NCBI GenBank assembly: GCA_963847595.1
Contig: CAWKAJ010000001.1
Span: forward strand, 601,258 to 665,257
DNA from: an uncultured Chloroflexia bacterium
GTDB lineage: Bacteria; Chloroflexota; Dehalococcoidia; SZUA-161
Reading direction: 5' to 3'
Length of the DNA: 64,000 nt
The translations under genes were made by a program, and so were the position numbers. The notes beneath the pieces were generated by a model, which did no database searches, was not told the origin of the DNA, and was given only the letters and a program-made list of their open reading frames with translations. This document shows positions 3,487 to 62,212 of the stretch, in pieces (the stretch's first letter is position 1; every line of letters begins with the position of its first letter).

Positions 3487-3840
3487 CTCTAATTACACTC
3501 CTTTGCTACCCTAAGTTCTGCCTGGAAGTCCGTGCTAATGTCGGTGCCGCTCAGCTTGCGCCAGAGCAGACACAACTCAAATTAGTCTATACTTAGTGTC
3601 ATTCTATGTCAAGAGTAAACGTTCAAAGGCGAAGGGCAGGGCGCTTCTGCCAAGGCGGGCTCTCCCAACCTCTTTCAAGGCTCGGTCCCCAGGGAGTCCA
3701 GAGGGATTAAAAAGATATGGAGGATTGCCCTCGGCCGGTTTTTCATTGGTGGAGGATACGGTGTATCTATGTCACCCTGAGTGTAACGAAGGGTCTCTGA
3801 GATTCTTCGCTTTGCTCAGAATGACATCATAACCGGAGTG

Positions 3841-3935
3841 TGCAGAGGGGCAAAGCCCCTTTGCTGGGGGTTTGGGGGTATCCCCCAGTTTCTTAAAGTC
3901 CCCCAAGACTGGGGGATTTAGGGGGTTCAAGAAGA
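3841..3935. repeat. G-rich triple-hairpin repeat, family A copy 1 (aggggCAAAGcccct / tgggggtatccccca / cccccaagactggggg)
   Basis: Near-identical copies occur at 14858-14950, 39231-39330 and 53211-53320. Each contains three consecutive short perfect palindromes. Confidence 0.7.
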
Positions 3936-4029: not shown

Positions 4030-5583
4030 ATGAGCATGGGTTCGAAGCCGCTAAGAGAGAAGCTGACAGCGCTCGACAAGATGGGCCACAGGCTCAGGCA
4101 GGGCGGCAGCCTGGCCAGAATAGAGAGACATCGCGCCAAAGGTAAACTCCTAGCGCGCGACAGGATAGAGAGGCTTCTCGACCCCGATACTTTCCAGGAG
4201 CTTGACCTCTGGGGCACCCCTATGGCTACAGGGACTCTCACCGACTATAAAAAGGGCCCTGCAGATGGCGTTGCTGTAGGCTACGGCCGGGTAAACGGAC
4301 GCCCTGTCTACGTCTGGTCGCAGGATGCCACCGTTTTCGGCGGCACCGTAGCCACAGTCCATGCCCGAAAGATAACCATGGTCATGGAGAAGGCCATACA
4401 GGCCAGGGTTCCGATTGTCGGCATCATCGACTCCGAGGGCCCGCGAATCGAGGACGCCATTCAGTATTATCGCTTCTATTCCCCCGAATCTATGGTCTAT
4501 TTTCAGACCCTGGCCTCAGGCGTAATTCCCCAGGTCTCTCTGATAATGGGGCCCTGCGTTGGCGAGATGGCCATCTCCGCCTCTTTAGCTGATTTCGTTT
4601 TCATGGTCAGGAATACCAGCCATATGCACGTAGCGCCGCTTCCTGAGCGCAAGGCTGCCGAGAAGGTGGGCAATGCCTCGGTACATGCTTACGATACCGG
4701 CTGCTGCGATGTGCTTGCTGAAGATGATGAAGAATGCCTGCGTAAATGTCGTGAGCTATTGAATTACCTGCCTTCGCATAACGCTGAGCCTGCTCCGGTC
4801 ATAGACACCGGCGACGACCCCGACCGCAGGGAGGAAGAGCTTCTGGAGATAGTCCCCTTCAATATGAAGAAGGCCTTCGACATGCACCGCATAATTTCCC
4901 TGATTGTAGACAACGGCAAGCTGTTTGAGATAAAGCAGCAGTGGGCAACCAACCTGATAACGTGTTTTGCACGGCTGGCCGGACAAACGGTGGGCTTCAT
5001 AGCCAATAACCCACAGTCCCTGGGAGGCTCCCTGACACTCGATGCTGCCGATAAGATGGCGCGCTTCGTCAGGTTCTGCGATGCTTTCAACATACCCCTG
5101 GTCTGGCTGGCAGATACCCCTGCCTTTCTGCCCGCAGTGGAAGAGGAGACCCGGGGCCTGATACGGCACGGCTGCAAAGTGGTATTCTCCAATGCCGAGG
5201 CTTCGGTGCCTCAAATCACCATCGCCATACGCAAGCTCTACGGAGGTGGAGGAGTAGCCATGCCCGGCACGACTCTGGGTGGCGACCTCGATGTGGCCTG
5301 GCCCTCTGTAGAACGCGGCCTCATGGGTCCGGAGGCGGCAGTATCCATCATCTACAGGAAAGAGCTGAGAGCCCTTAAGGACAAGGATGAAGCCGCATTA
5401 AAAGAACGGCATGCTCAGAGGGTCTTGGAGATGCAGCAGAGGCTGCGCCACCTTGAGCGCGAGTGGGGCCAAGAGTTTATCGACCCTCGTGACACCCGCC
5501 CTTTCCTTATCAAAGCCCTCAAGACATTTGCCCGCAGAGAAGAAGGCCGCCCTCCCCGCAAACACGAAAACATGCGCCTCTAA
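4030..5583 (+). CDS. acyl-CoA carboxylase carboxyltransferase subunit (PccB/MmdA/GcdA family), paralog 1
   Basis: Carboxyltransferase signature blocks (DSEGPRIEDAIQYYRFYSPES, GPCVGEMAISASLADF). Likely start MSMGSKPLREKL at 4030 or 4036. The track ORF starts further upstream at 3961. Confidence 0.88.
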   Translation: MSMGSKPLREKLTALDKMGHRLRQGGSLARIERHRAKGKLLARDRIERLLDPDTFQELDLWGTPMATGTLTDYKKGPADGVAVGYGRVNGRPVYVWSQDATVFGGTVATVHARKITMVMEKAIQARVPIVGIIDSEGPRIEDAIQYYRFYSPESMVYFQTLASGVIPQVSLIMGPCVGEMAISASLADFVFMVRNTSHMHVAPLPERKAAEKVGNASVHAYDTGCCDVLAEDDEECLRKCRELLNYLPSHNAEPAPVIDTGDDPDRREEELLEIVPFNMKKAFDMHRIISLIVDNGKLFEIKQQWATNLITCFARLAGQTVGFIANNPQSLGGSLTLDAADKMARFVRFCDAFNIPLVWLADTPAFLPAVEEETRGLIRHGCKVVFSNAEASVPQITIAIRKLYGGGGVAMPGTTLGGDLDVAWPSVERGLMGPEAAVSIIYRKELRALKDKDEAALKERHAQRVLEMQQRLRHLEREWGQEFIDPRDTRPFLIKALKTFARREEGRPPRKHENMRL

Positions 5584-5591
5584 ACCATGTA

Positions 5592-5720
5592 AATGTCATT
5601 CTGAGCTTTAGCGAAGAATCTCGGTATTTAGGCCTGCCTGCTATTTTCGTTCTTCGTGGTGCTGATTGCAGTCAGCATGACGGATTCCTGCTTACGCAGG
5701 AATCCAGTAGGCGCACAGCG
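5592..5720. repeat. composite hairpin repeat (modules tgtcattctgagc..gaagaatctc + tattttcgttcttcgtg + cggattcctgcNNgcaggaatccag)
   Basis: The same three-module arrangement recurs at 22268-22400 and, more diverged, at 42076-42250. The first module also occurs as a back-to-back inverted pair at 3776-3835. Confidence 0.6.
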
Positions 5721-6779: not shown

Positions 6780-6934
6780 TTTGCTTCTCCTCGTAACCTT
6801 AGTATATATTGAGGTCGTCTATTAATCGTGTTAGAACTTGGTAGCCTTTTATACCACCGGTATAGTGACTTGTCAACTGCTCTGCAACCCCGCTTGAAAC
6901 GATGTCTCCTTGTAGCTCAACGCACCACGAGGGC

Positions 6935-6963
6935 TTGGTTTTGCAGGTGGCTGACCTTATAAT
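6935..6963 (+). promoter_or_regulatory. candidate sigma70-type promoter (TTGGTT -17- TATAAT) for the peptidase gene
   Basis: TATAAT at 6958-6963 and TTGGTT at 6935-6940 with a 17-nt spacer. Read by eye only. Confidence 0.3.
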
Positions 6964-7003
6964 GAGGAGACGCCGGTCACAGCGTTACCCGATTCCCGAG
7001 AAC

Positions 7004-8209
7004 ATGAAGATGTCTGCGGATAGATATACCGATTACATGTATGGCTTGGTCAAAAAGGTCATCAACGAAATCGGCCCGCGCCCGTCTTGCAGCGAACGGG
7101 AAAAGAAGCTGGGCCGCCTTCTGGTTGAGGAGTGGCAGCCCTTCTGCGACAGGGTCGAGGCGGAGACATTTACCTGCAGTCCCCACGCCTTCCTGGGCTT
7201 CATCCCTGTCTCAGTCTTGCTCTACTTTGCCGCCGTCGTCCTCTACTGGTTCTACCCGCTGGCCTCCTTCGTACTTATCGCCATCGGCTTCGGCACGTTG
7301 TTTTTCGAGCTCCTGCGGTACCGCGAGTTCGTTGATTTCCTGTTCCCCCGCAGACAGGGCGAGAACATCATGGGCACGATTCGACCTAAGGGCGAAGCTA
7401 CACGCAGGGTTATCGTCAGCGCCCACATGGATTCGGCTTACGAGTTCAACCTCATCTATTACCTGAAAAACGCGGTTATCCCGCTAGTAGAAATCGCCAT
7501 ATTAGGGCTGGTCATCGCCCTGGACGGCAGCCTGGCCAAAACCATCGCCTACTTTTATGGCTTCGCAGATTCCACCGCTTTCACGGTGGTTGGATACATC
7601 ATGATTGCGTTCACTCCCCTCATGGCGCTTGCCCTGTTTTTCCACACGTACAAGCCGGTCCCCGGAGCTATGGACGACATGGCAGGGGTTGCAGTCGTCG
7701 CCGGCCTGGGCAAGTACCTGCAGGAGGCGCGCAAGACCGGGGACTGGCTCCCCGAGAAAACCGAGGTAGTGCTGCTAGCGATGTCGTCCGAGGAGGCCGG
7801 GTTACGCGGCGCCAAACGGTACGTGGCTAAGCATCTGCAGGAGATGGTAACGACGCCGACGTACGGGTTGTTCCTGGACGGCATATACGATGAGAAGTTC
7901 CTGACCGTGACCAACCGCGAGCTTTGCACCGGGGCGAAACACGACCCCGGGCTGGTCAAGATGGCTCAGGATGCGGCGGCAAGCCATAACTGGCATATAG
8001 CCACCAGAATGATTCCGTTGGGCGGCACCGATGCCGCCGCCTTCTCAGTGAAGGGAGTCCCCGCCGTATGCCTGCATTGCCAGGATACCTCCCGAGCCGT
8101 GCCCAACTACCACACCCGGGACGACACCTACGAACACATCCGCCCGGAATCGCTTTCGGTATCGCTGCAGCTTGTTATCGATATGCTCCAGCAGATAGAC
8201 AAGAAGTAG
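7004..8209 (+). CDS. membrane-anchored M28-family metallopeptidase (aminopeptidase-like)
   Basis: N-terminal TM segments are followed by an M28-like catalytic region (SAHMDSAYEF...MDDMAGVAVV...SSEEAGLRGAKRY). The start is set at MKMSADRY (7004). The track ORF begins at 6902 but its first 34 residues look non-native. Confidence 0.65.
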   Translation: MKMSADRYTDYMYGLVKKVINEIGPRPSCSEREKKLGRLLVEEWQPFCDRVEAETFTCSPHAFLGFIPVSVLLYFAAVVLYWFYPLASFVLIAIGFGTLFFELLRYREFVDFLFPRRQGENIMGTIRPKGEATRRVIVSAHMDSAYEFNLIYYLKNAVIPLVEIAILGLVIALDGSLAKTIAYFYGFADSTAFTVVGYIMIAFTPLMALALFFHTYKPVPGAMDDMAGVAVVAGLGKYLQEARKTGDWLPEKTEVVLLAMSSEEAGLRGAKRYVAKHLQEMVTTPTYGLFLDGIYDEKFLTVTNRELCTGAKHDPGLVKMAQDAAASHNWHIATRMIPLGGTDAAAFSVKGVPAVCLHCQDTSRAVPNYHTRDDTYEHIRPESLSVSLQLVIDMLQQIDKK

Positions 8210-8215
8210 ATGATA

Positions 8216-8255
8216 CAGTTGTAGGGTGGGTGGGTTCCCTTCCATTTCACCGGCA
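8216..8255. repeat. repeat family H9 copy (gttgtagggtgggtg ... ccatttcaccg), left flank of ADH cassette
   Basis: Shares the core with 9349-9440 and 9711-9772. Confidence 0.6.
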
Positions 8256-8296
8256 TCCTTGCCAGTTGAAATTAAAAGTAAATTTGGAGGAAGCTT

Positions 8297-9286
8297 ATGA
8301 AAGCGATTGTATATACAAAATACGGACCACCCGATGTTCTTCAGCTCAAAGAGATAGCCAAACCTATTCCCAAGGACAATGAAGTACTAATAAAGATACA
8401 TGCCACAACAGTAAATAGAACCGACTGCGCAACAATTAGAGCAATACCTTTTTTCATGAGAATATTTACAGGACTACTCAAACCAAAAAAACAAATTCCC
8501 GGAACTGCATTTGCTGGAGAAATTGAAGCGGTTGGTAAAAGTGTATCGTCTCTAAAAGTAGGAGATAAAGTGTTTGGATTTGATGACCTGGGCTCAGGAT
8601 CTCAGGCCCAATACACGACAATATCAGAAGATAAAGCGCTGACAACAATACCAAGAAATACAACATTTGAGCAGGCTGCAGCTAGTACTGAAGGTGCGCA
8701 TTATGCGTATAATTTTATTAAAAAAGTGAACCTGAAAAGTGGTCAAAAAGTGCTCGTTAATGGCGCAACAGGAGCTATTGGTTCAGCAGCAGTTCAACTT
8801 CTAAAATACTTGGGCCTTAAAGTTACTGCAGTATGCAATACGAAAAACATAGAATTAGTAAAATCATTAGGAGCCGATAAAGTAATTGATTATACAAAAG
8901 AAGATTTTACGAAAGATGAAGAAAAATATAACTTCGTTTTTGATACTGTTGGGAAAAGTTCATTTTTCAAATGCAAACCATTGTTACAATCGGGCGGAAT
9001 TTATATTTCATCGGACTTAGGTTATATGGCTCAAAATGTTTTTTTACCACTTATTACACCGATTATTAAACCAATGATCGGTAATAAAAAAACCATATTT
9101 CCAGTTCCTACAGATATTAAAGGAAGTATACTTTTAATCAAAAAGCTCATTGAGGAAGGAAAATTCAAAGCGGTTATAGATAGAAAATATCCGCTGGAAC
9201 AAATTGTCGAGGCGTATAAGTATGTCGAAGCAGGGCACAAAACGGGAAATGTGGTCATTACTGTGGAGCATAACAACAAAACCTGA
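8297..9286 (+). CDS. zinc-type alcohol dehydrogenase / quinone oxidoreductase (MDR superfamily), low-GC (apparently foreign)
   Basis: 329 aa MDR pattern (NRTDCATIRA..., GATGAIGSAAVQL Rossmann). By eye the gene is roughly 40% GC against roughly 57% in the neighbouring genes. GGAGG RBS is present. Confidence 0.85.
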   Translation: MKAIVYTKYGPPDVLQLKEIAKPIPKDNEVLIKIHATTVNRTDCATIRAIPFFMRIFTGLLKPKKQIPGTAFAGEIEAVGKSVSSLKVGDKVFGFDDLGSGSQAQYTTISEDKALTTIPRNTTFEQAAASTEGAHYAYNFIKKVNLKSGQKVLVNGATGAIGSAAVQLLKYLGLKVTAVCNTKNIELVKSLGADKVIDYTKEDFTKDEEKYNFVFDTVGKSSFFKCKPLLQSGGIYISSDLGYMAQNVFLPLITPIIKPMIGNKKTIFPVPTDIKGSILLIKKLIEEGKFKAVIDRKYPLEQIVEAYKYVEAGHKTGNVVITVEHNNKT

Positions 9287-9348
9287 CAAAGCGCTATACC
9301 CGACCGGTATTCCGCTGCGCTTCATGGCGGCAGGCAAGCTCCATGAGA

Positions 9349-9440
9349 AGTTGTAGGGTGGGTGCAGTCCGTCTCAGGCAGGACGAAACCCACCATTTAC
9401 ATTCTGGGGATTGGTGGGTTACATTTCATTTCACCGCTCT
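9349..9440. repeat. repeat family H9 copy (agttgtagggtgggtgNagtcc...gacgaaacccaccatttacatt)
   Basis: Inverted gggtggg/cccaccc arms. A related copy is at 9711-9772. Confidence 0.65.
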
Positions 9441-9448
9441 ACGATACC

Positions 9449-9655
9449 TTATTGCGGAAACTCGCTCACTACTGCCAACCGTAACGTTGGTTCGTATTTT
9501 TTAAGACTTCCAAAAGCTATTCTTGCTGGGAAGCCATGACTTATGCGCCACTGTTCGTGTTCTGAATCACCAGCGTATGCAACATGTTTAACCATGTCTC
9601 CCCAAGGCCACCTCCGGTGGCACATAGGGCACATGAAAGGCTTACTGAGATTCAT
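9449..9655 (-). CDS. hypothetical small protein (68 aa, CPMC..H..H)
   Basis: ORF between two H9 repeat copies. No recognisable family. Coding status is uncertain. Confidence 0.25.
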   Translation of the reverse strand: MNLSKPFMCPMCHRRWPWGDMVKHVAYAGDSEHEQWRISHGFPARIAFGSLKKYEPTLRLAVVSEFPQ

Positions 9656-9710
9656 AGGTGCCTCCTCCCTGTTCGATGCCTAAATATCATGATTTTTCAA
9701 ATAGTTCACA

Positions 9711-9772
9711 GAAGTTGTAGGGTGGGTGTAGTCCTTCTTGGGAAAGACGAAACCCACCATTTACATTTTCAG
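9711..9772. repeat. repeat family H9 copy
   Basis: agaagttgtagggtgggtgtagtccttcttgggaaagacgaaacccaccatttacatt. Confidence 0.65.
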
Positions 9773-9773
9773 G

Positions 9774-10442
9774 CTATATTTCCTCTTTTGTCCTCGGAGG
9801 TAAGGGGGCAATTAACCATCCGCGTTTTGGATAGGCAAACCCGACGCTGTCTCTACTAAAAAGCATAGCGCGTCTGTACTGTGGTGAATGATTACACCAT
9901 TTCTTCAAATATGACTTTACTTGCCTATATCGGTTCCTTTTGGGTGTTCTATTCTCCCTTAAATCATCGTCGACATATTCCAAGAAGTAGAGAATCGGTT
10001 TTTGCAGGTTCTTGGATTTATAGACGTCTTTCAAGTCGCGAATATCCTTTTCGGTAAAGGTCAATGGGACAACTTGCCCACCACCACGTTTGATTTGGAC
10101 AGCGGCTAGGAGCGGTAATTCCTTTGCAAGTTCTCCTCTAGGGCGGTCCCAGTTGGACTGGGCCTCACTTGCTTTGCTCGGTGCCCACAGAACCAAGTCA
10201 ATGGGGCTTCTAGTCACGCAAGGCCATTCCAGCCGAGCCAAACATATCGTCGAATCTACCCCTGAGTTGGCTGCAAGTGACTCTCTCGTCCATGCCATTA
10301 AGCATGCAGCTATTTCGTGTTCATGGTAAAAATTAAAGGCATCATCACCTTGAAACTGAAATGCAAGCCGCTTCACGCTATTCTCAAATGCTCTCAGTAC
10401 TTCTAAAGACGTTGAATCCCTGTCTGCATAAAACTTTGACAT
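9774..10442 (-). CDS. hypothetical protein, possible PD-(D/E)xK nuclease-like fold
   Basis: 222 aa. The spacing HEHEI ... SPIDLVLW ... AAVQIKRGG fits the E / hhhD / (E/Q)xK pattern. GC is lower than in the core genes. Nothing else is recognisable. Confidence 0.4.
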   Translation of the reverse strand: MSKFYADRDSTSLEVLRAFENSVKRLAFQFQGDDAFNFYHEHEIAACLMAWTRESLAANSGVDSTICLARLEWPCVTRSPIDLVLWAPSKASEAQSNWDRPRGELAKELPLLAAVQIKRGGGQVVPLTFTEKDIRDLKDVYKSKNLQKPILYFLEYVDDDLRENRTPKRNRYRQVKSYLKKWCNHSPQYRRAMLFSRDSVGFAYPKRGWLIAPLPPRTKEEI

Positions 10443-10599
10443 TTCATCGTACTCCTTTATTTGTTAATCCCACCAAAGAACTTATCTGGCGATATTCTAC
10501 AGGGATATGCATATTCGTGCCAGAAGCCTCTTACAACCACCTGTTGACATACCTGGTTATCCAGAAGCATAATTGCCCTGGGAGCAGCAGTGTAAGTAT

Positions 10600-12159
10600 A
10601 TGGCCAAATACATCATAGCCCACGATGTAGGCACCAGCGGAAACAAGGCTGTCCTGGTAGATACCGAGGGGCATGTCCACGGCAAATGCTCCGAGCCCTA
10701 CAGGGTCTGCTATCCTAGGCCCGATTGGGCCGAGCAGGAGCCTGAGGACTGGTGGAAGGCAGTTACCCGCACCACCAGGCTCCTTCTGGAAAAGACAGGC
10801 GTATCGCCCGCCGATGTGCTCTGCGTGACACACTGCACACAGATGCTGGGCATCGTGCCTATAGACCCCCAAACGGGACCGCTCCGGCCCGGGATAATCT
10901 GGCTGGACAACAGGGCCTGCAATCAGGCGAATCGCGTCATGAGAAAGTTCATCAGCGCTCGCCTTTTCGCTCTTATCGCCGGTGCCGCCCTTTGCGGCAA
11001 GGACGGCATCCCCAAACTGCTCTGGCTGAAAGAGGAGGAGCCTGATATCTATAGTAAGATGAGCTGTTTCCTCGACGTCAACGGCTACCTTATCTATCGC
11101 AGCACCGGCAACATAGTCATGGAGTGGACCGGCGCCTCGGTGTTCGGGCTGGACCTCAAGAAAAAGCAGTGGCTTCGCAGCATCTTCCGCTACGTGGGGC
11201 TCGACCCCGCAAAGTTTCCGCCCCTGGTGCGGCCTATCGATAAGGTGGGAACGCTGTCCCGGGAAGCAGCCAGCGAATGCGGGCTGCTGCAGGGCACGCC
11301 TGTCATGGCAGGTGCGGGAGACGCCCCCTGCGCTGCGGTGGGCTCGGGCGCAGTCGGCGAAGGCGAGGGGCACGTCTACCTCGGCACATCGGGCTGGGTC
11401 GGCGTGGTCACAAAACGCACGCCCAAAGGCAAGTGCGGCGCAGCCTCGATACACTCGGCAGACCCCGATAAGGCGTTCCTGTTCGCTGAGACCGAGACCG
11501 CAGGGGCTTGCATGCAATGGATGGCCGAGCAGTTATACAGCTCCGAAAAGATAGACCCCAACATCGGCGATGTGTATGCCCTCATGGACGAGAGAGTTGC
11601 CCGCATACCGCCGGGTTCCGGCTATCTGCTCTTCACGCCCTGGATGTACGGAGAGAGGGCGCCCATCAGCGACTGCAACGTGCGCTCCAGCTTTCTGAAC
11701 CTGAGCGCCGAGCATACCCGCGACCACCTGCTCCGCGCCGTCTACGAGGGGATAGCTTACAATATCAGGTGGATCGTGGAAATCATCGAGAAGGAGTACA
11801 AATTCCCCCTTCCTGATCTCAGGGTAATCGGCGGAGGAGCCAAAGCTGCGCCTTTGATGCAGATTCTGTCAGATGTAACTCAACGAAAGGTGGAGACTGT
11901 CCGCTACCCGCAAGAAGCAGGCGCGGTAGGGGCAGCCATGGTGGCGGCGGTCGGCCTCGGTATCTATCCGAATTTCGAGGCACTAAAAAAGGTGGTGAAT
12001 GTGGACAAGGCCTTCGAGCCTGAGGAAAAGAACCGGGGTATCTACGATTCCCTCTACGGCTCTTACCGGGAGGCATACAGCAGCCTTCGCGGCTTCTATA
12101 AAAGGCTCAATGAGCGGAGAGCGATTCAGCAACGTTCCTGCAAGGAGGTGCGTGGATGA
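10600..12159 (+). CDS. FGGY-family carbohydrate kinase (xylulokinase/glycerol-kinase-like)
   Basis: MAKYIIAHDVGTSGNKAVLVD N-terminal phosphate-1 motif and a full-length FGGY architecture. The track ORF starts 27 nt earlier. Confidence 0.88.
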   Translation: MAKYIIAHDVGTSGNKAVLVDTEGHVHGKCSEPYRVCYPRPDWAEQEPEDWWKAVTRTTRLLLEKTGVSPADVLCVTHCTQMLGIVPIDPQTGPLRPGIIWLDNRACNQANRVMRKFISARLFALIAGAALCGKDGIPKLLWLKEEEPDIYSKMSCFLDVNGYLIYRSTGNIVMEWTGASVFGLDLKKKQWLRSIFRYVGLDPAKFPPLVRPIDKVGTLSREAASECGLLQGTPVMAGAGDAPCAAVGSGAVGEGEGHVYLGTSGWVGVVTKRTPKGKCGAASIHSADPDKAFLFAETETAGACMQWMAEQLYSSEKIDPNIGDVYALMDERVARIPPGSGYLLFTPWMYGERAPISDCNVRSSFLNLSAEHTRDHLLRAVYEGIAYNIRWIVEIIEKEYKFPLPDLRVIGGGAKAAPLMQILSDVTQRKVETVRYPQEAGAVGAAMVAAVGLGIYPNFEALKKVVNVDKAFEPEEKNRGIYDSLYGSYREAYSSLRGFYKRLNERRAIQQRSCKEVRG

Positions 12160-14738: not shown

Positions 14739-14850
14739 AGGGGGCGACCCGCCTTCGGCGGGTCGCCCCCTTAATATGTCATTGCGAGGAGTCCGCCTCT
14801 GGCGGACGACGTGGCAATCTCCCCGAGCCCGTGTAGCGCCGTGACAGGGA
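14739..14850. repeat. repeat family B copy 1: GC hairpin (ggggcgacccgccTTCGgcgggtcgcccc) + tgtcattgcgag..ccgccNNNNggcgg..gcaatctc hairpin
   Basis: Copies at 16135-16190, 23838-23950 and 58680-58950. The first hairpin may double as the operon terminator after 14704. Confidence 0.7.
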
Positions 14851-14857
14851 GTGCAGA

Positions 14858-14950
14858 GGGACAACAGTCCCTTTGCCGGGGGTTTGGGGGTGTCCCCCAA
14901 TTTCCTTTCCTCCCCCAAGACTGGGGGATACAGGGGGTTCAAGAAGGTTG
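14858..14950. repeat. G-rich triple-hairpin repeat, family A copy 2
   Basis: gtgcagagggacaacagtccctttgccgggggtttgggggtgtcccccaa...cccccaagactgggggatacagggggttcaagaag. Confidence 0.7.
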
Positions 14951-16106: not shown

Positions 16107-16190
16107 AGTAATGTAGGGGCGCACTGCAGTGCGCCCCTATAATATGTCATTGCGAGGAGTCCGCCCCAGGCGGACGACGCGGCAATCTCT
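16107..16190. repeat. repeat modules H4 (gtaggggcGCACTGCAGTGCgcccct) + family B hairpin (copy 3)
   Basis: taatgtaggggcgcactgcagtgcgcccctataatatgtcattgcgaggagtccgccccaggcggacgacgcggcaatctc. Confidence 0.7.
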
Positions 16191-16326
16191 CCCAGCCTTC
16201 CTCTTCCGCTCTGTGGTAAATTATCGCGTGTTCGAAAATCTATACTTTATAACGCGGAAGTAGATAGGGAAGCTGTCTCAAAAGCTCCTTGAGGAAACGG
16301 AGTTTCGACCTCAAAGCTAATACCTC

Positions 16327-22200: not shown

Positions 22201-22267
22201 TGATGGACAGTGACTCCTCTCGTCACTTCCTCATGCCATTGCTTTAAAAATAGAATACTGAGGGCTT

Positions 22268-22400
22268 AATGTCATTCTGACCCTGAGTGGAGCGAAGGGG
22301 AAGAATCTCAGTTTAGCCCTGCGCTACTATTTTCGTTCTTCGTGATGAACATTGTAATGCTCATGACGGATTCCTGCGCAAGCAGGAATCCAGGTGCCCT
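22268..22400. repeat. composite hairpin repeat (same three-module arrangement as 5592-5720)
   Basis: tgtcattctgaccctgagtggagcgaaggggaagaatctcag ... tattttcgttcttcgtgatg ... cggattcctgcgcaagcaggaatccaggtgccc. Confidence 0.65.
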
Positions 22401-23837: not shown

Positions 23838-24085
23838 AAGAGGGTGACCCGCCGAAGGCGGGTCACCCTTCATATGTCATTGCCGCGTCGTCCTTCCCGT
23901 ACGGGAAGGACGACGCGGCAATCCCCCCGAGCCCGCGTAACGTCGTGACTCTCAGACCGAACCACGACCGACGAAACGAGCAGCGCAACCCAAAGACCAT
24001 TGCCGTGAAATGTAGGGGCGCACTGCTGTGCGCCCTCTCCCAAATCCCCCCTTTTGCAAAGGGGGATACGGGGGGATTTCGCTCT
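23838..24085. repeat. mosaic of hairpin repeat modules (family B, H13 ccacgaccgacgaaacgagcagcg, H4, H5 cccccctTTTGCAAAgggggg)
   Basis: Each module has additional copies elsewhere in the window (14739-14850, 48226-48285, 16107-16133, 58499-58543). Confidence 0.7.
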
Positions 24086-24752: not shown

Positions 24753-24964
24753 CTCTTAACCTCCTTTCTCCTAGTAATTTCTTACAGGTGATGTATTACA
24801 ATAATAATGTAGCAACAATAGTCTCAAAATGTTATAAAATCGGCAGCGGAAAAGTTACAAATATATGCCATTTAGGGAGCAATGACTTAATTTTATAGAC
24901 AACAGTGTCTATGATGAAGCAGATTCAGGTTTAGTACGTGAAGTGAAACGTAACCCACCACTTA

Positions 24965-25010
24965 CACAAACAAACTAAAAAGGAGGAGTCCTTCCTGGGA
25001 AGGACTCCTC
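24965..25010 (-). terminator. intrinsic terminator of the minus-strand carboxyltransferase operon
   Basis: Perfect 13-bp stem GAGGAGTCCTTCC-cag-GGAAGGACTCCTC is followed on the minus strand by CTTTTTAGTTTGTTTG. It lies just after the stop at 25033. Confidence 0.6.
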
Positions 25011-26652: not shown

Positions 26653-26687
26653 CTGATCCCTCCGAAATTAATTACAGCGATTGCGAT

Positions 26688-28232
26688 TTACAATCTGATA
26701 TTTTCGTGTTTGCGTAGAGGCCTTCCCTCATCCCTGCTGGCAAATGTCTTCAGCGTCTGTATCAGGAAGGGTCTGGTGTCCCTGGGGTCGATGAAGCCCT
26801 GTCCCCATTCACGCTCCAGGGCCCGCAGCTTATGCCTCATCTCGACAGTCCGCTGTTCCAGTTTTTGCGCTCTCGCGGCTTCATCCTCGATGGCAGCGAG
26901 CTCCCTCCGGTAAATAATGGATACCGCACCCTCCGCTCCCATCAACCCGCGCTCCACAGAGGGCCAGGCCACGTCAACGTCGCCTCCCAGCGTCGTGCCT
27001 GGCATGGCCAACTGCCCGCCTCCGAAAAGCTTCCGTATAGCGATGGTTATCTGAGGCACGGTGCACTCGACATTGGAGAATACCAGCTTGCAGCCATGCC
27101 TGATAAGTCCTCTGGTCTCCTCATCGATGGCAGGCAAAAAGGCCGGGGTATCCGCCAGCCAGACCACGGCTATGTTGAAGGCATCGCAGAACCTGACGAA
27201 CCGCGCCATCTTATCAGCCGCGTCCAGGGTCAGCGCGCCGCCCATGGACTGGGGATTATTAGCTACAAAACCTACCGTCTCTCCGGCCAACCTGCCGAAG
27301 CCGGTTATCAGGTTGTTCGCCCACTGCCGTTTCAACTCCAGGAACTCGCCCTTGTCCACTACCAGCGAGATCAGCTTGGTCATACTGTACGGCTTATTTG
27401 TATCGAGAGGAGCCACGCTCAAAAGCTCCTCTTCCCTGCGATTGGGAGGGTCGCCGGTGTCCACCACAGGCGGCTTCTCCTTATTATTTGAGGGCAGGTA
27501 ACTCAGCAGCTTGCGGCAGTTCTCTATACACTCATTGTCGTCCTTGGCCAGGAAATCGCAGCATCCCGTCTTGCGGAAATGCCCCGAAGGATCGCCTGTT
27601 TCCTCGGAGGTCTTGCCCTGAGGCGGTAATGCTATGTGCATGTAGCTGGTCTTTCTGACCATGAACACGAAATCGGCCAGGGAGGCGGAGATAGCCATCT
27701 CGCCCACGCACGGCCCCATAATCAGAGAGATTTGGGGGATCACACCCGAGGCCATGGTCTGGAAATAGACCAGAGATTCGGGAGAGTAGAAGCGATAATA
27801 CTGAATGGCATCTTCGATTCTGGCGCCCTCGGAATCGATAATGCCCACGATAGGGATACGGGCATGGATGGCCTTCTCCATTGCCCCTGATATCTTGCGA
27901 GCATGGATGTTAGCCAGTGTCCCGCCGAAAACGGTGGCATCCTGCGCCCAGACGTAGATAGGGCGTCCATTTACCTGACCATATCCTACGGCAACGCCGT
28001 CTGCGGGGCCTTCCGTCTTATCGATATCGAACGCCGTAGCCATAGGCGTGCCGAACAGGTCAAGCTCCTGAAAAGTGCCGGGGTCGAGAAGCTTCTCAAT
28101 CCTCTCCCGCGCCGTGAGCTTCCCTTTCTTATGCTGCTTTTCAACCTCAGCGGGGCCACCGCCCTGCCTCAACTTGCCCCTCAACTCATCAATCTCGGAA
28201 ATCTTCTGTTTCATCATATCCAGATCGCTCAT
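26688..28232 (-). CDS. acyl-CoA carboxylase carboxyltransferase subunit, paralog 3 (close paralog of 4030-5583)
   Basis: 514 aa. Long blocks are identical to paralog 1 (IPIVGIIDSEG.RIEDAIQYYRFYSPES, GPCVGEMAISASLADFVFMVR). Confidence 0.88.
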   Translation of the reverse strand: MSDLDMMKQKISEIDELRGKLRQGGGPAEVEKQHKKGKLTARERIEKLLDPGTFQELDLFGTPMATAFDIDKTEGPADGVAVGYGQVNGRPIYVWAQDATVFGGTLANIHARKISGAMEKAIHARIPIVGIIDSEGARIEDAIQYYRFYSPESLVYFQTMASGVIPQISLIMGPCVGEMAISASLADFVFMVRKTSYMHIALPPQGKTSEETGDPSGHFRKTGCCDFLAKDDNECIENCRKLLSYLPSNNKEKPPVVDTGDPPNRREEELLSVAPLDTNKPYSMTKLISLVVDKGEFLELKRQWANNLITGFGRLAGETVGFVANNPQSMGGALTLDAADKMARFVRFCDAFNIAVVWLADTPAFLPAIDEETRGLIRHGCKLVFSNVECTVPQITIAIRKLFGGGQLAMPGTTLGGDVDVAWPSVERGLMGAEGAVSIIYRRELAAIEDEAARAQKLEQRTVEMRHKLRALEREWGQGFIDPRDTRPFLIQTLKTFASRDEGRPLRKHENIRL

Positions 28233-39210: not shown

Positions 39211-39230
39211 CCGTGTCGTTTAGGAACTGA

Positions 39231-39330
39231 GGAGTCCAGAGGGGCTTTGCCCCTCTGGTGGGGGCCTGGGGGTATCCCCCAGCCTTAAAAGTCCCCCAAG
39301 ACTGGGGGATTTAGGGGGTTGAAAAGTGTC
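39231..39330. repeat. G-rich triple-hairpin repeat, family A copy 3 (within operon, between dehydrogenase and ferredoxin)
   Basis: ggagtccagaggggctttgcccctctggtgggggcctgggggtatcccccag...cccccaagactgggggatttagggggttgaaaag. Confidence 0.7.
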
Positions 39331-42506: not shown

Positions 42507-43574
42507 ATGAGAAAAGTCTTGTGGAGCGTACTTGTCGTAGCACTATTGCTGACTATGCTGGTATCAGGGAGCTCGTGCAGTAAGACGGCCTCTGTGACGG
42601 CGACGCCAACGCCAACACTCACCCTTACACCAACACCTGCACCTGCAATTACATCTACATCTACACCAACGCCAACACCCAAGTCGACTTCCACGCCTAA
42701 GGCCGCACCAGTCTCTGGCTGGAGCGCCATGAGCAGCAGCACCCACTCAGTCCTTTATAGTGTCTGGGGCAGTTCCTCCTCCGACATCTTCGCGGTCGAT
42801 GAAGATGGAGGTATCCAGCACTACAACGGCAAGACCTGGAGCACCATGTACACCAGCACCATACAGTACCTTTATGGTGTCTGGGGCAGCTCTTCCTCCG
42901 ATGTCTTCGTTGTGGGGGGAGCTAATGGCGATATCCTGCACTATGACGGCAGCGCCTGGAGCACCATGCACACCGGCTTCCTAGTCTACCTTCATGCTGT
43001 CTGGGGCAGCTCCTCTTCCGATGTCTTCGCCGTGGGGGATGGTGGCACCATCCTGCACTACGACGGAAGCGCCTGGAGCGCCATGACTAGCGGCACCGAC
43101 GAAGGTCTTGATGGTGTCTGGGGCAGTTCCTCCTCCGATGTCTTCGCCGTGGGATGGGATGCGTCGACTAACAATGGTATCATCCTGCACTACGACGGAA
43201 GCGCCTGGAGCACCATGACCGGCGACACCACGAACTTGGTTTTGTATGGTGTCTGGGGCAGCTCCTCCTCCGATGTCTTCGCCGTGGGATCCCCTGGATT
43301 GAGTCAGTCAACTGAAAATACAACTATCCTGCACTATGACGGCAGCGCCTGGAGCACCATGAGCGGTGGCAGTATAAATGGCCTGCAGGGAGTTTGGGGC
43401 AGCTCCTCCTCCGATGTCTTCGCCGTGGGGGGAAGTGGCGCTATCGTGCACTATGACGGCAGCGCCTGGAGCGCCATGAATAGCGGCACCGAAGAGTCGT
43501 TTAATGGTGTCTGGGGCAGTTCTGCCTCCAATGTCTTCGCCGTGGGGAGTGATGGCATTATCCTGCACTATTGA
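42507..43574 (+). CDS. secreted beta-propeller repeat protein (BNR/Asp-box, Ycf48-like) with Thr/Pro-rich linker
   Basis: Signal peptide and a TPTPTLTLTPTPAP linker. Nine to ten tandem units of the form GVWGSSSSDVFAVG..G.ILHYDGSAWS.M. HYDGSAWS fits the Asp-box x-D-G-x-x-W. Confidence 0.75.
   Translation: MRKVLWSVLVVALLLTMLVSGSSCSKTASVTATPTPTLTLTPTPAPAITSTSTPTPTPKSTSTPKAAPVSGWSAMSSSTHSVLYSVWGSSSSDIFAVDEDGGIQHYNGKTWSTMYTSTIQYLYGVWGSSSSDVFVVGGANGDILHYDGSAWSTMHTGFLVYLHAVWGSSSSDVFAVGDGGTILHYDGSAWSAMTSGTDEGLDGVWGSSSSDVFAVGWDASTNNGIILHYDGSAWSTMTGDTTNLVLYGVWGSSSSDVFAVGSPGLSQSTENTTILHYDGSAWSTMSGGSINGLQGVWGSSSSDVFAVGGSGAIVHYDGSAWSAMNSGTEESFNGVWGSSASNVFAVGSDGIILHY
42750..43570 (+). repeat. tandem DNA repeats of about 117-130 bp encoding the propeller blades
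   Basis: Stretches such as cagctcctcctccgatgtcttcgccgtgggg and atcctgcactacgacggaagcgcctggagc recur nearly verbatim. Confidence 0.75.
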
Positions 43575-47950: not shown

Positions 47951-48039
47951 CTCGCTCCTTTTCCCAGGATATCTAGAGGGTAGCATGCGCCCATCTGACT
48001 GTCAATCAGCCTCGTCGGTTCATTGTGCCACAAACACTG

Positions 48040-48290
48040 GAGATGAAGGAATAAAATTTCCCTCCCCTCGAGGGAGGGATTAAAGGGAGGGGGATCTAGC
48101 ATCCGTTTCTGGTGAGCCTTGTCCTGAACTTGCCGAAGGATCGTCGAAGGATGAGGGGGAAGAATTCAACCATAGGGACACAGGGTGCCGTGCCCTTCAC
48201 TTTGCCTTTCGAATTCGTTCATAGCCCCGAAACCCACGACGATAGACGAAACAAGCAGCGTAACCGGACGACGAACCACTCCCTCATCTG
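48040..48290. repeat. mosaic hairpin-repeat region (ccctcccCTCGAGggaggg, cctgtcctga..gtcgaagga, ccacgacgatagacgaaacaagcagcg)
   Basis: Modules match 58551-58566, 59300-59345 and 23945-24000 respectively. Confidence 0.55.
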
Positions 48291-48592
48291 TGTAAAATGT
48301 CGCACCTTCAAGCTGTCACCGGCCAGACTTCCGGATATCGAGTTGGAAACAAGAAAGGTCAAGAGTAGGAACTTCTAAACACACTAGATTCTGAAGCATT
48401 AGCCCAGATTTGACGGGCAATCTCTTACGGCCGATTATCAGGTTCACGCGAGCAGTCGCTTGAGGTCTTCAATAAATTTGTTAAAGTTTTTCACTTTATT
48501 ACTTTCTTCAACATCGTCTTCACAAAGTACATGGCTTCCGTCAAGATGTAGCTCTAGAACAGCTCTGCCATTCTTCATTGGTTCTTTGGGGG

Positions 48593-48820
48593 CTAATCCT
48601 TTGAGTATTTTTCAATGCGCTCTTTAACCCAAACCCAATCTGGGTCGCCGTAATTGAAAAAACATTTGAAATTATCCTTGAGCCACTCGTAATAGTCGTC
48701 TTCAACATATTTGCAGAAAGTCTCGATAAGCACATCCCCAATAATATCCTTAGGTATCCTTATTTCTAAGTCTTCGAGTTGTTCATCTAGGAATTCTTTC
48801 ACAACTTGTCTATCAAGCAT
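48593..48820 (-). CDS. hypothetical small acidic protein (75 aa), AT-rich
   Basis: Sits 24 nt downstream of the 48845-49834 gene on the same strand. No family recognised. Confidence 0.3.
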   Translation of the reverse strand: MLDRQVVKEFLDEQLEDLEIRIPKDIIGDVLIETFCKYVEDDYYEWLKDNFKCFFNYGDPDWVWVKERIEKYSKD

Positions 48821-48844
48821 CTTACAACCTCCCCATATTCCAGA

Positions 48845-49834
48845 CTAATCATGTATTTCTTCCAGAACTAGAGCATTCTTTTGGGGATTGACTTTGTATT
48901 TGATGAGCCTCACCGTTTTTTCTTCAATCGCTTTTCTTTTCCTCCAATATTCGAGCACTCTTTCATCAAATCCAAATCCTACTAGGATGCTCTGAACCAT
49001 TTCAGAATCTCCATCGGCGAGTTTTCTGACTATCCAGTTTTCATATTTTATGATTTGATTAAGGTCTTCTTCGGAAATTTTGCCCGCTTTTAGCTCCATG
49101 CATGTGAACTTATGCAGAATATCAACAGAGTCAATTGTAGTTACATGTGTAAGGAATATATCCATTACCTTGTTAAACGAGGTGGGCACATAATTCAAAT
49201 AGTCTCTATAATCACCAATGAGTTCTTTCAATTTACCGTTTGAAAAGGCCCGCATAAACCAGGCATTAAGACATCCTTCGTATCTTAAGTGACCACTTTT
49301 ATCGGATTCAAGACTCAGAGGTAAGGGTACCTTTTTCGTCAGCAAATAAGGTTGTGGTATGATATCTGGCTTTGCGAAAATAGGATTATTCCTAAGTAAT
49401 AGTCGGATTAACTCTTTTCCCTCATCAGTGGTGATCGGATTGTGTGATTTTTTCGTAACGGTTCCCAAATCAAAGGTCCATATCTTGCCTTTATCTTTTA
49501 AATCCAAAATATCAGCCATCGCAATGGGGGCCGAAAATCTTCTGATTGTTGGTTCAAAGCATACTCTGAACGGGTAAAGTTGGTCTGGATCATCCCAAAC
49601 AGGTGTTGTATCATAGAATGAGTCAGTGGTAATCCTCCACAATCCATAGATGCCTCTATTCTTTACATAGAAGAATACAAAGTCCCCAATCTTGATTCCG
49701 GCAAATCCAGAAATAACTTCTGAATTCGTTTGCTCCGATTTGGCTGAGCCGTGAAATTCAATACCACCATAGACTCCTTTCCTTAAGCAAACGCCAAAGT
49801 TGCTTTCCCCAGCGAGAAAAATGTGATACCCCAT
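48845..49834 (-). CDS. PUA/EVE-like N-terminal domain protein with possible PD-(D/E)xK nuclease C-terminal domain
   Basis: N-terminus MGYHIFLAGESNFGVCLRKGVYGG...IKIGDFVFFYVKNRGIYGLWRITTD resembles EVE/PUA-like domains. The C-terminus contains D...VDILHKFTCMELKAGK, which is (D)-x-ELK-like. The gene lies in an AT-rich islet. The domain calls are by eye only. Confidence 0.5.
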   Translation of the reverse strand: MGYHIFLAGESNFGVCLRKGVYGGIEFHGSAKSEQTNSEVISGFAGIKIGDFVFFYVKNRGIYGLWRITTDSFYDTTPVWDDPDQLYPFRVCFEPTIRRFSAPIAMADILDLKDKGKIWTFDLGTVTKKSHNPITTDEGKELIRLLLRNNPIFAKPDIIPQPYLLTKKVPLPLSLESDKSGHLRYEGCLNAWFMRAFSNGKLKELIGDYRDYLNYVPTSFNKVMDIFLTHVTTIDSVDILHKFTCMELKAGKISEEDLNQIIKYENWIVRKLADGDSEMVQSILVGFGFDERVLEYWRKRKAIEEKTVRLIKYKVNPQKNALVLEEIHD

Positions 49835-50099
49835 AATTAATTCTCTCCTTTTCCGCTAGACTTCAGCAATATAGTGAGCTAATGAAAACCATATCTACAC
49901 TATCATTCGCAAGCGGAATCTTTCTCGCCTCACTGGGGTTATGTCATAACCGATGGCTCTTCTCTTTTCTTCCCCGCATCCCAAACCTCCCCTTCAACTA
50001 AGCATCGGCTCCTTTGCATAGCACATGTTTATTAAGTCTTGTTTTCGCAGACATTATACAGCATGCGTCGAGTTTCAAAAAGAAGTCGTTCCCGAGCGG

Positions 50100-50180
50100 C
50101 CGGAATAAGACCCTCTCGCTAGTAAAATGATAGACCCGACGGGGTATCGTTCTCGGGTCAGGGCGAGAAGGTCTCTCCAG
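50100..50180. repeat. repeat module H11 copy (ccggaataagaccctctcgctagtaaaatgatagacccgacggggtatcgttctcgggtcagggcgagaag)
   Basis: Aligns with 43757-43830. Confidence 0.55.
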
Positions 50181-50313
50181 GGAGACATCTCACTTCTTCG
50201 AGATACATAAACGGCCCCAGCGGTGTGTACCCTCGCCGGATAGCTTCATTACGCCGACGCATTAGCACAGATATGCCGAAGTTGCCAATCCGGTGGGCGT
50301 GTAGTAGAATTGT

Positions 50314-50694
50314 GTGCGTAGAAGCAGTAGATTCGTGAAAGAGCGAGACAATTACCCGCTGAGCCAACGGGAGCGAGAAGCACTTATTCTCGCCGCTCGA
50401 GGTATGACTAATAAGGACATCGCTGAACGCTTGTGTACCAGCACAAGCACGGTAAAAGCTATCATACATCAGGCATGCGTTAAGCTCGGAGCACGCAGCA
50501 GAGGGCAGGCGATCGTCATAGTCTTGAAACGGGGCATCGTGCGTACGGACGAGATGTATACCCTGGATGAACTGGCAGATATGCTCTGCTCCCTCGGCTC
50601 ACAAACGATAGAGTCCATAGCTGAAATCGTGAAGCAAAAGTTCGAACAGGTTCGACTGCCTCTGGATGTCGAATCATCCCCTTCCCGACGATAA
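50314..50694 (+). CDS. LuxR/GerE-type HTH transcriptional regulator (small)
   Basis: LSQREREALILAARGMTNKDIAERLCTSTSTVKAIIHQACVKLGA is a clear LuxR-type HTH. GTG start per track. The true start is uncertain. Confidence 0.7.
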   Translation: MRRSSRFVKERDNYPLSQREREALILAARGMTNKDIAERLCTSTSTVKAIIHQACVKLGARSRGQAIVIVLKRGIVRTDEMYTLDELADMLCSLGSQTIESIAEIVKQKFEQVRLPLDVESSPSRR

Positions 50695-50969
50695 TAGAGT
50701 CTCACCAACAACCCATACCCCTTCCTTGCCCCAATTTCCTTTACAAATTATTTAACCATTCCGACCATCTACCACGAAGACCATTCGAAGCTAAACCAAA
50801 GTTATGAACCGAAGTTACTTGAAAATAACGCAGCAATGTGCTATTTCTGTAATCGCCTGCATCAGAGCCAACAATCGGCCCTCATTAGCTTTCAACTGGC
50901 CTCAGTCAGATAGCAGTTGATTTGATTCGATCGAGTTGGAGGAGCACAGAGTCTTCGGAGGTGCGAGCA

Positions 50970-53149: not shown

Positions 53150-53380
53150 CTGTAGGGGCACAGTGCACTGTGCCCTGTAAGTCTCCCAAGACTGGAATTA
53201 ATGGATTGTTACTGAAAGGGGAGTGCAGAGGGGAAAGTCCCCTCTGCCAGGGGTTTGGGGGTGTCCCCCAACCCCAAAATCCCCCAAGACTGGGGGACAC
53301 AGGGGGTTGAAAAGGCCTTATCGAAGACCTAGTCGATTAACAATTAGGGGAGTCCGGAGGGGAAAAGCCCTTCTGGCGGA
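53150..53380. repeat. H4 hairpin (gtaggggcACAGTGCACTGTgccct) + family A triple hairpin copy 4 + partial extra copy, within operon
   Basis: ggggagtgcagaggggaaagtcccctctgccaggggtttgggggtgtcccccaa...cccccaagactgggggacacagggggttgaaaagg ... ggagtccggaggggaaaagcccttctggcgg. Confidence 0.7.
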
Positions 53381-62183: not shown

Positions 62184-62212
62184 TAGCCGGTGATACTAAT
62201 ACCGGGGGAAGG

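Follow-up and report, generated by a model that had tools for sequence, protein, structure and literature searches.

We analysed a 64-kb window, by which we mean the whole stretch of DNA under study, from an uncultivated member of the Chloroflexota, and describe here a small, strain-variable islet at positions 8210-10543. The islet comprises 2,334 bp with a GC content of 42.0%, compared with 54-57% in the 5 kb on either side. It occupies a slot between the stop codon of an M28 peptidase gene (6902-8209; 57.6% GC; GC content at third codon positions, GC3, 0.76) and the -35 box of an operon encoding an FGGY kinase (59.3% GC, GC3 0.73) and a RuBisCO-like protein. From left to right it contains a first copy of a repeat called H9, an oxidoreductase gene on the plus strand (8297-9286, referred to as ADH for alcohol dehydrogenase), a second H9 copy, a gene for a 68-aa protein on the minus strand (orf68, 9449-9655), a third H9 copy and a gene for a 222-aa protein, also on the minus strand (orf222, 9774-10442). 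The left edge of the slot is the M28 stop codon TAG (8207-8209, plus strand), and the right edge is the promoter of the FGGY operon, TTGACA-18-CATAAT (10544-10573, plus strand), which matches the consensus at 11 of 12 positions. The first, sequence-only reading of this DNA had put the ADH gene at roughly 40% GC in a genome of roughly 57%. The low GC content is correct, but the measured value is 36.2% (GC3 0.27), and the figure of 57% suits the neighbouring genes and not the window as a whole (53.2%).

A scan of metagenomes with the M28 protein returned 80 loci, and in relatives the slot was seen empty and with at least six other sets of cargo. The empty site is present in three independent contigs (L154, L157 and L159), where the M28 stop codon TAG is directly followed by the TTGACA of the promoter (...AAGAAGTAG|TTGACAT...CATAAT...ATGGCC) and both the ADH gene and the head of the repeat are absent. 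In these contigs the M28 protein is 78-82%, the FGGY kinase 87-92% and the RuBisCO-like protein 96-97% identical to its counterpart in the window. Since the site is empty in three related contigs, the islet represents an insertion/deletion polymorphism. Its right-end segment (10486-10543, unstranded) is shared with L009 and L149 and is missing from the empty sites; from 10486 onwards the window and L009 are homologous again.

The alternative cargo differs strongly between relatives. In L009, whose flanks are 94-96% identical to the window at the nucleotide level, the first repeat, the ADH gene and the second repeat are the same, and then open reading frames (ORFs) of 117, 185 and 166 aa replace orf68, the third repeat and orf222. 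L142 and L147 harbour a short dimer of the repeat, a family III CoA-transferase gene (53% GC), a composite repeat and a different ADH paralogue (type B). The type B ADH, which is 48-59% identical to the ADH of the window, is also found together with a repeat in L143, L145, L150 and L160, with the same leader in front. In L146 a repeat overlaps the M28 stop codon and is followed by a 341-aa ORF, a composite repeat and 37 nt that duplicate the 3’ end of M28. L153 has tandem ADH genes in the slot, the repeat and the leader are deleted in L144, and the cargo of L148 and L149 is a 391-aa repeat protein. The latter (1272-2447 in L149) has a paralogue elsewhere in the window (42507-43574) with a 117-nt period at the DNA level and the motif ILHYDG..W..M; this paralogue is beta-propeller-like and has no match in Pfam. 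Further, the cargo genes next to the FGGY promoter in L009 (10564-11064) and L146 (4467-5492) encode D...E-x-K-like motifs (EDV...WKIECKG and DIVV...YEIK, respectively) without Pfam support, and different nuclease-like genes may thus recur in the slot.

The islets that were read span 1.3-3.3 kb, the insertion point is base-exact across all haplotypes, and integrase or recombinase genes were found in none of the islets. Conserved flanks, alternative cargo or an empty site in relatives and the lack of mobility genes inside characterize the slot as a hotspot. This bears out the proposal of the sequence-only reading that the block is foreign or accessory, which was to be judged by synteny in related genomes: the composition is deviant, the block is present in some relatives and absent from others with an exact empty site, and close relatives carry other genes in its place.

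The repeat was found where the sequence-only reading had seen it, with two copies bracketing the ADH gene and a third one further to the right. The 15-mer GTTGTAGGGTGGGTG occurs in three exact copies (at 8218, 9350 and 9714), all on the plus strand, while 0.13 copies are expected and none of 100 shuffled sequences reached three; CCCACCATTTACATT is present at 9389 and 9753. A profile was built from the composite copies and run with nhmmer over the 64-kb window. It matched at 8215-8257 (right half only, E 2e-3), 9347-9445 (E 4e-30) and 9711-9772 (E 2e-15), and outside the islet it gave a single weak match (24931-25008). Every copy at the locus is on the plus strand, and all three are intergenic, at a distance of 1-60 nt from a stop codon (that of M28, of ADH and orf68, and of orf222).

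Copy 1 is a short form, in which the GTAG head (an exact match to the 15-nt head) and GGTGGGT are fused to the right half GGGTTCCCTTCCATTTCACC; the nhmmer match covers model positions 53-95. The same element directly follows the M28 stop codon in L009, L142, L143, L145, L147, L150, L152 and L156. Copy 2 is a composite of about 99 nt with the layout of an inverted dimer with the heads outside: GTAGGGTGGGT, a nested hairpin, ACCCACC, a spacer, GGTGGGT and a degenerate second head ...CTCTACGATA. Its folding z-score is -1.6, its counterpart in L009 has an intact second head, ACCCACCCTAC, and L017, L018 and L020 have this composite downstream of an ADH operon. Copy 3 consists of one nested hairpin with a GTAG head (folding z-score -2.2) and is located 1-2 nt past the stop codon of orf222. 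A search against Rfam revealed no family at gathering score in the 64 kb and only chance-level matches in the region 8100-10700. Since the hairpins lack a T-run, they were not scored as terminators in a scan for intrinsic terminators.

Judged by its sequence, the H9 repeat belongs to a class that has been described before, the GTAG-tagged repetitive extragenic palindromic (REP) elements, and is of the type GTAGGGTGGGT...ACCCACC, partly in the form of an inverted dimer. In copies 2 and 3, GTAG stands at the foot of the stem and is followed by GGTGGGT ... ACCCACC, so that head and stem are as in published REPs. Among the REPs associated with REP-associated tyrosine transposases (RAYTs) are GTAGGGTGGGTCTTGACCCACC in Haemophilus parasuis, GTAGGGTGGGCTTCAGCCCACC in H. 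influenzae and GTAGGGtGGGTAAGCGcAGCGCACCCaCC in Cronobacter sakazakii (Nunvar et al. 2010, PMC2817692), and GTAGGGTGGGT..ACCCACC REPs are also given in PMC4690160. The GTAG-tagged superfamily, including a GTAG-3-like family, was described for Proteobacteria, Cyanobacteria, Chloroflexi and the PVC group (Di Nocera et al. 2013, PMC3733652). Its traits include loops whose inner part is self-complementary, dimers in inverted orientation with 20-100 bp between them, and sites that are preferentially downstream of ORFs.

In line with this assignment, a scan of one genome per species with the pattern TGTAGGGTGGGT-N15-40-ACCCACCATT revealed at least 120 loci in many phyla, including Thiomargarita, Parabeggiatoa, Anabaena/Nostoc, Pirellulaceae, Phycisphaerales, Chloroflexi and others. 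Among the matches listed, many have the full inverted-dimer layout with ACCCACCCTAC at the end, and other genomes contain multiple copies of the pattern. Comparison of the 96 distinct inner segments showed variable sequences and a conserved tendency to fold (median z-score -1.75). The closest variants among the matches listed, which have the right half GGTGGGTTCCATTTCATTTCACC, are found in a metagenome-assembled genome (MAG) of Dehalococcoidales, between ordinary genes of normal GC content. In the window itself, GTAG hairpins of all stems number 20, as compared to 3.3 expected, and approximately 16 of them have other stems and surroundings of 50-59% GC. No RAYT was detected by a motif search (Y..NP / HUH ORF) in the window or in approximately 200 fetched loci, which is a crude test.

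The sequence-only reading had also suggested that H9 repeats flank foreign genes and act in their capture. The repeat belongs to a known class that is spread over many phyla and lies at ordinary sites, and therefore it is not special to foreign genes: other Dehalococcoidales and Chloroflexia MAGs have H9-type copies between ordinary genes, and most GTAG hairpins of the window are in intergenic DNA of normal GC content. Moreover, the ADH gene is shared, at the same locus, with the strain that is 94-96% identical, and the recent variation lies to the right of it. Thus, of the proposed repeat-mediated capture of foreign genes, the foreign origin is supported by composition and by the empty site, and the capture is not.

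Other hairpins in the window deserve mention. Further GTAG hairpins are located at 16113, 24012, 42131, 43867, 53152 and 58475-59447, with the stems GTAGGGGCGCAC.., GTAGGGGCACAG.., GTAGGGCGGGTT.., GTAGGACAGGCT.. and GTAGGTTGGAGC.., and they form a dense cluster at 58.4-59.5 kb. All of them are on the plus strand, and this uniformity may reflect a replication-strand bias of REP insertion. Other families of intergenic hairpin repeats, such as ATGTCATTGCGAGGAG...GCAATCTC and GGGGGTATCCCCCA..., are interspersed with REPs in mosaics (3835-3934, 5592-5714, 14742-14946, 16142-16219, 22232-22400, 23838-24073, 39229-39327, 53218-53314 and 58753-59106).

Two differences between strains bear on a role of the REPs in rearrangement. 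The extra 1.36-kb segment of L142, which contains the CoA-transferase module, is flanked by two direct copies of GGTGGGTTCCATTTCATTTCACC, 23-nt REP halves, and the short copy 1 of the window is the exact fused product of these two halves. The window and L009 diverge from 9450 onwards, 4 nt past the end of the REP composite (...CTACGATACCT). Because the indel of L142 ends in REP copies and the swap in L009 starts by a REP, the REPs take part in rearrangement at this locus, where they would serve as short direct repeats for recombination. In this respect the sequence-only reading holds, since the repeats are found at every module boundary and both strain differences break in or beside one of them.

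The module to the left is made up of the ADH gene with its own leader and 3’-untranslated region (3’-UTR). The leader (8258-8296, plus strand) contains an imperfect hairpin and the ribosome-binding site GGAGGAA; it is identical or nearly identical in L009, L142, L143, L145, L150, L152 and L160, even in front of another ADH paralogue. The conserved 3’-UTR (9287-9346, plus strand; 60% GC) contains the bulged hairpin CTGCGC-TTCATG-GCGGCAG and is kept 3’ of ADH genes in L016 (a Planctomycetes MAG), L017-L020 and L160. Together with the REP composite it is found at a second locus, after an ADH-ADH-DUF4386-ADH operon (L017-L020), the second gene of which is 96% identical to the ADH gene of the window at the nucleotide level.

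The encoded protein belongs to the NAD(P)-dependent medium-chain dehydrogenase/reductase (MDR) family, with the Pfam domains ADH_N (GroES-like, PF08240), ADH_zinc_N (PF00107) and ADH_zinc_N_2 (PF13602). Zinc-dependent alcohol dehydrogenases carry the motifs C-H-x-D and GHE as parts of the Cys...GHE His...Cys pattern of zinc ligands. Direct reading of the sequence showed that these motifs are absent: ...TVNRTDCA... and ...GTAFAGEIEAVG... are found at the respective sites, and GTAFAGE replaces GHE. The best relatives in the PDB are enone/quinone oxidoreductases (E 1e-37 to 1e-29, full length). Thus, the enzyme, which had been annotated by eye as a zinc-type ADH, is predicted to be a zinc-free MDR enzyme of the quinone/enone-reductase type. 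Its nearest solved relatives, which have the same set of MDR domains, are quinone oxidoreductases of the zeta-crystallin type and plant alkenal/enone oxidoreductases (4ida, 5a3j, 1yb5 and 3tqh). Unlike these, it scores below the curated cut-off of every NCBIfam model (the best match is quinone_pig3), its gene has a low GC content, and nearly identical copies are spread over the MAGs of several phyla.

The homologues of this protein number in the thousands. Copies with 84-98% identity are present in MAGs of several phyla, those with 84-87% being named Chloroflexota, Dehalococcoidales, Aminicenantaceae and Planctomycetes; a look-up of the exact protein returned no identical record. The GC content of the gene is 32-36% in every context that was read, including a Planctomycetes contig with 41% GC. 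ADH paralogues are 80-88% identical in their first 110-140 nt and last 160 nt and have divergent middles. The same contrast between shared ends (8297-8416 and 9129-9346 in the window) and divergent middles was observed in the tandem operons of L010, L017-L020 and L153. This mosaic suggests recombination between paralogues, a pattern consistent with gene conversion.

The two smaller ORFs were present as described in the sequence-only reading, and since both have conserved homologues, they are real genes. For orf68, 15 homologues of matching length with 75-88% identity were found, in which the residues C9, C12, H24 and H33 are invariant. The AlphaFold2 model (pLDDT 91.6) has a predicted beta-beta-alpha start followed by helices, so that the product may be a CCHH zinc-finger-like protein. 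It has no match in Pfam, NCBIfam, PADLOC or PHROGs, and a Foldseek search against the PDB gave nothing significant. Its homologues adjoin genes for an OLD-type ATPase and IS110 and rve genes.

For orf222, 56 homologues of matching length were detected. The structural model (pLDDT 91.6, pTM 0.91) contains the alpha-beta-beta-beta-alpha-beta core of a PD-(D/E)xK fold with the residues E41, D82 and Q116-x-K118, and thus agrees with the fold proposed from the spacing of the motifs. In this superfamily, the catalytic signature D ... (D/E)xK is carried by strands 2 and 3, and a further acidic residue by helix 1. Among 29 representatives of the family, E41 and D82 are found in all and K118 in 24; position 116 is occupied by E in 22 and by Q in six, the Q being typical for orf222 and its close relatives. 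The family is rare, with 51 cluster representatives in 1.84 billion proteins, and unannotated. The profile searches that had been recommended for this protein were run against Pfam, NCBIfam, PADLOC, PHROGs and the sequences of the PDB, and nothing matched; ten distant members of the family were likewise without a Pfam match, and Foldseek against the PDB was not significant.

The gene seems to be autonomous. A promoter-like sequence, CTGGCA-18-TAGAAT, is located on the minus strand at 10523-10494, and the leader and promoter-like region of orf222 spans 10443-10500 (minus strand). L225, in which the context is different, matches the window at 9774-10500 only (91% nucleotide identity). This stretch comprises the complete gene with its stop codon and 58 nt in front of the start codon, and therefore orf222 moves with its own leader. 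The neighbours of the family elsewhere vary: an XRE regulator and a PLD-like protein, a large AAA protein and a glycosylase, or IS21. Based on the model, it is possible that orf222 encodes a BamHI/NucC-like PD-(D/E)xK protein, putatively a defence or restriction nuclease. It differs from the endonucleases BamHI, OkrAI and BglII and from the effector NucC in that similarity at the sequence level is undetectable, in that its subfamily has Q116 and not E, and in that no methyltransferase or cyclase partner is present in the contexts that were read.

Taken together, these observations lead us, with moderate confidence, to view the islet as a strain-variable accessory slot, in which three independent, horizontally circulating modules are split by GTAG REPs and turned over by homologous recombination. 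Judging by the names under which homologues are recorded, the host is probably a Dehalococcoidales-like member of the Chloroflexota. The first module would be the low-GC, zinc-free MDR oxidoreductase with its own leader and 3’-UTR, the second one the small CCHH protein, and the third one the PD-(D/E)xK protein with its own promoter. The autonomy of the modules is indicated by L225, which matches the third module alone, and by the homologues of orf68 in unrelated accessory contexts. Gain and loss would proceed via homologous recombination along two routes, in the conserved flanking genes, in the manner of the minimal mobile elements of Neisseria, or between REP copies acting as short portable homologies. 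The REPs would double as 3’ hairpins of the adjoining genes, and a dedicated capture enzyme would be unnecessary.

Several points weigh against this view. The putative causal role of the REPs is supported by no more than two junctions at one locus. The REPs may simply accumulate in tolerant non-coding DNA: approximately 16 other GTAG REPs lie in ordinary intergenic regions of the window, H9-type REPs in other MAGs are not beside low-GC genes, and the homologues of orf68 and orf222 in other contigs have no adjacent REP. The direction of the change, insertion or deletion, is not readable, and the empty state may be ancestral or derived, because the identities of the contigs with the empty site overlap those of the island-bearing L149 (M28 88%, FGGY 88%). 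Finally, the duplicate in L146 hints at site-specific or Campbell-type integration, which is not required by a recombination model.

If the REPs were pure passengers, the islet would be exchanged via recombination in the flanking genes or by unrelated means, and the REPs would settle later in harmless gaps, the junctions being incidental. We regard this as possible, though rather unlikely. It is in line with the excess of GTAG hairpins in surroundings of 50-59% GC, with the H9-type REPs between normal genes of other Chloroflexota MAGs, and with published work, which puts REPs chiefly downstream of ORFs and in core regions. In addition, an H9 REP that has no counterpart in the window lies 1.3 kb upstream of M28 in L146, and therefore the REP family is mobile on its own. 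However, the passenger explanation does not account for the 23-nt direct REP halves that bound the indel between L142 and the window, for the start of the swap in L009 4 nt past a REP, for the location of three of the three H9 copies of the 64 kb within a 2.3-kb islet, or for the pairing of the ADH 3’-UTR with the REP composite at a second locus.

It is tempting to go further and to speculate that the GTAG REP dimers of Dehalococcoidales-like bacteria are portable recombination sites, which build REP-gene-REP-gene arrays at fixed slots as a recombinase-free or RAYT-assisted capture platform. We consider this unlikely. If true, such a platform would be functionally comparable to an integron, and REPs would be directly involved in horizontal gene acquisition.

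We think it very unlikely that the islet is the remnant of one or more small integrative elements, which entered the M28 3’ end in a site-specific or Campbell-type manner and have since lost their integrase. The base-exact insertion point in all haplotypes fits such an origin, as does the duplicate of the M28 3’ end in L146 (5625-5670). This duplicate is identical at 33 of 37 positions, is preceded by the right REP composite and is followed by the FGGY promoter, whose TTGACA it abuts; its score was reached by none of 2000 shuffles, and a weak one in L009 by three of 2000. On the other hand, the islets are just 1.3-3.3 kb long and have no integrase or recombinase. The right end of the window islet (10486-10543) was considered as a decayed duplicate of this kind and rejected, since its score was reached by 171 of 2000 shuffles and its bases belong to the leader and promoter module of orf222 that is found in L225.

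An active, REP-dependent capture, in which a RAYT (a Y1 HUH transposase) or another enzyme acting on single-stranded DNA mobilizes modules bounded by REP heads like an integron, is most improbable in our opinion. The layout is array-like with REPs in the same orientation between the modules, in L146 a GTAG head is found to the left of the cargo and a degenerate head in inverted orientation to the right, and the modules end sharply at a stop codon and at a leader. Yet the crude motif search detected no Y1 transposase, the cargo genes are in both orientations, integron core sites (RYYYAAC/GTTRRRY) are absent on direct reading, and the same cargo genes exist elsewhere without REPs. To our knowledge, no such capture activity is known for RAYTs. 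A genuine integron array of attC cassettes was rejected, since the ends GTTGTAG and TTACATT do not fit core sites, orf68 and orf222 are oriented opposite to ADH, and orf222 has its own leader.

Apart from the islet, two other regions of low GC content exist in the window. The region 48000-50900 (40-44% GC) encodes an EVE-domain protein and small ORFs and looks like a defence-type accessory region. Its 329-aa ORF (48845-49834, minus strand), which was considered as a second ADH copy, is the EVE-domain protein instead (PF01878, E 3e-6). The region 61563-64000 (37-38% GC) contains ORFs for an IS3-type rve integrase (61563-62183, plus strand), a protein with a SIR2_2 domain (62213-63106, minus strand) and another protein of 304 aa. 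In addition, a long inverted repeat (4138-5584 / 26687-28127) with arms of 1127, 157 and 92 nt, 73-83% identity and a distance of 21 kb indicates paralogous genes in opposite orientation.

None of the elements is of a new kind, the repeat being a GTAG REP, the slot a hotspot islet, and the proteins including an MDR oxidoreductase and a predicted PD-(D/E)xK protein; no result overturns current understanding. New are the unannotated nuclease-like family and a clean example, seen in several haplotypes of an uncultivated lineage, of cargo that turns over in a slot punctuated by REPs. What had looked like a loosely defined foreign cassette with unusual repeats is now a hotspot with a base-exact empty site and at least seven haplotypes, and the repeat has been assigned to a known REP class. 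The locus provides a natural test bed for the part of REPs in gene gain and loss in uncultivated Chloroflexota. Further, a rare PD-(D/E)xK family is flagged as a possible defence or restriction nuclease, and an oxidoreductase gene was found to circulate with hardly any change between MAGs that bear the names of several sediment phyla.

When compared to GTAG-tagged REP, BIME and REPIN elements, the H9 repeat is similar in several respects. Its stem, GGTGGGT/ACCCACC, directly follows the 5’ GTAG, an arrangement shared with the REPs of H. parasuis, H. influenzae and C. sakazakii; unpaired bases set the stem apart from a GC-rich hairpin nested inside it; and the elements are extragenic, mostly just 3’ of ORFs, and form inverted dimers with the heads outside. 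The differences are that 64 kb contain only three copies, all at one islet, and one weak match, that no cognate RAYT was seen by the motif search of the window and the fetched loci, that the host genome is Chloroflexota-like, and that one copy is a short fusion form.

Integron cassettes with attC sites likewise have short, structured, imperfect palindromes between compact modules in a single orientation. In the islet, however, the RYYYAAC/GTTRRRY core sites and an intI gene are lacking (no recombinase was found in the islet, the remaining window not having been exhaustively scanned for intI), the genes run both ways, one of them has its own promoter, and the repeat is of the REP class and probably dispersed genome-wide. 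The minimal mobile elements of Neisseria (PMC3787668, PMC4269198) share with the islet a fixed slot between conserved genes, small strain-specific cargo without mobility genes, and a low GC content of the cargo, which includes a restriction-type nuclease (a putative one in the islet), as in the case of the low-GC drg endonuclease at the leuS/dam slot. In contrast to them, the modules of the islet described here are split by REPs, and REP copies form the ends of at least one indel.

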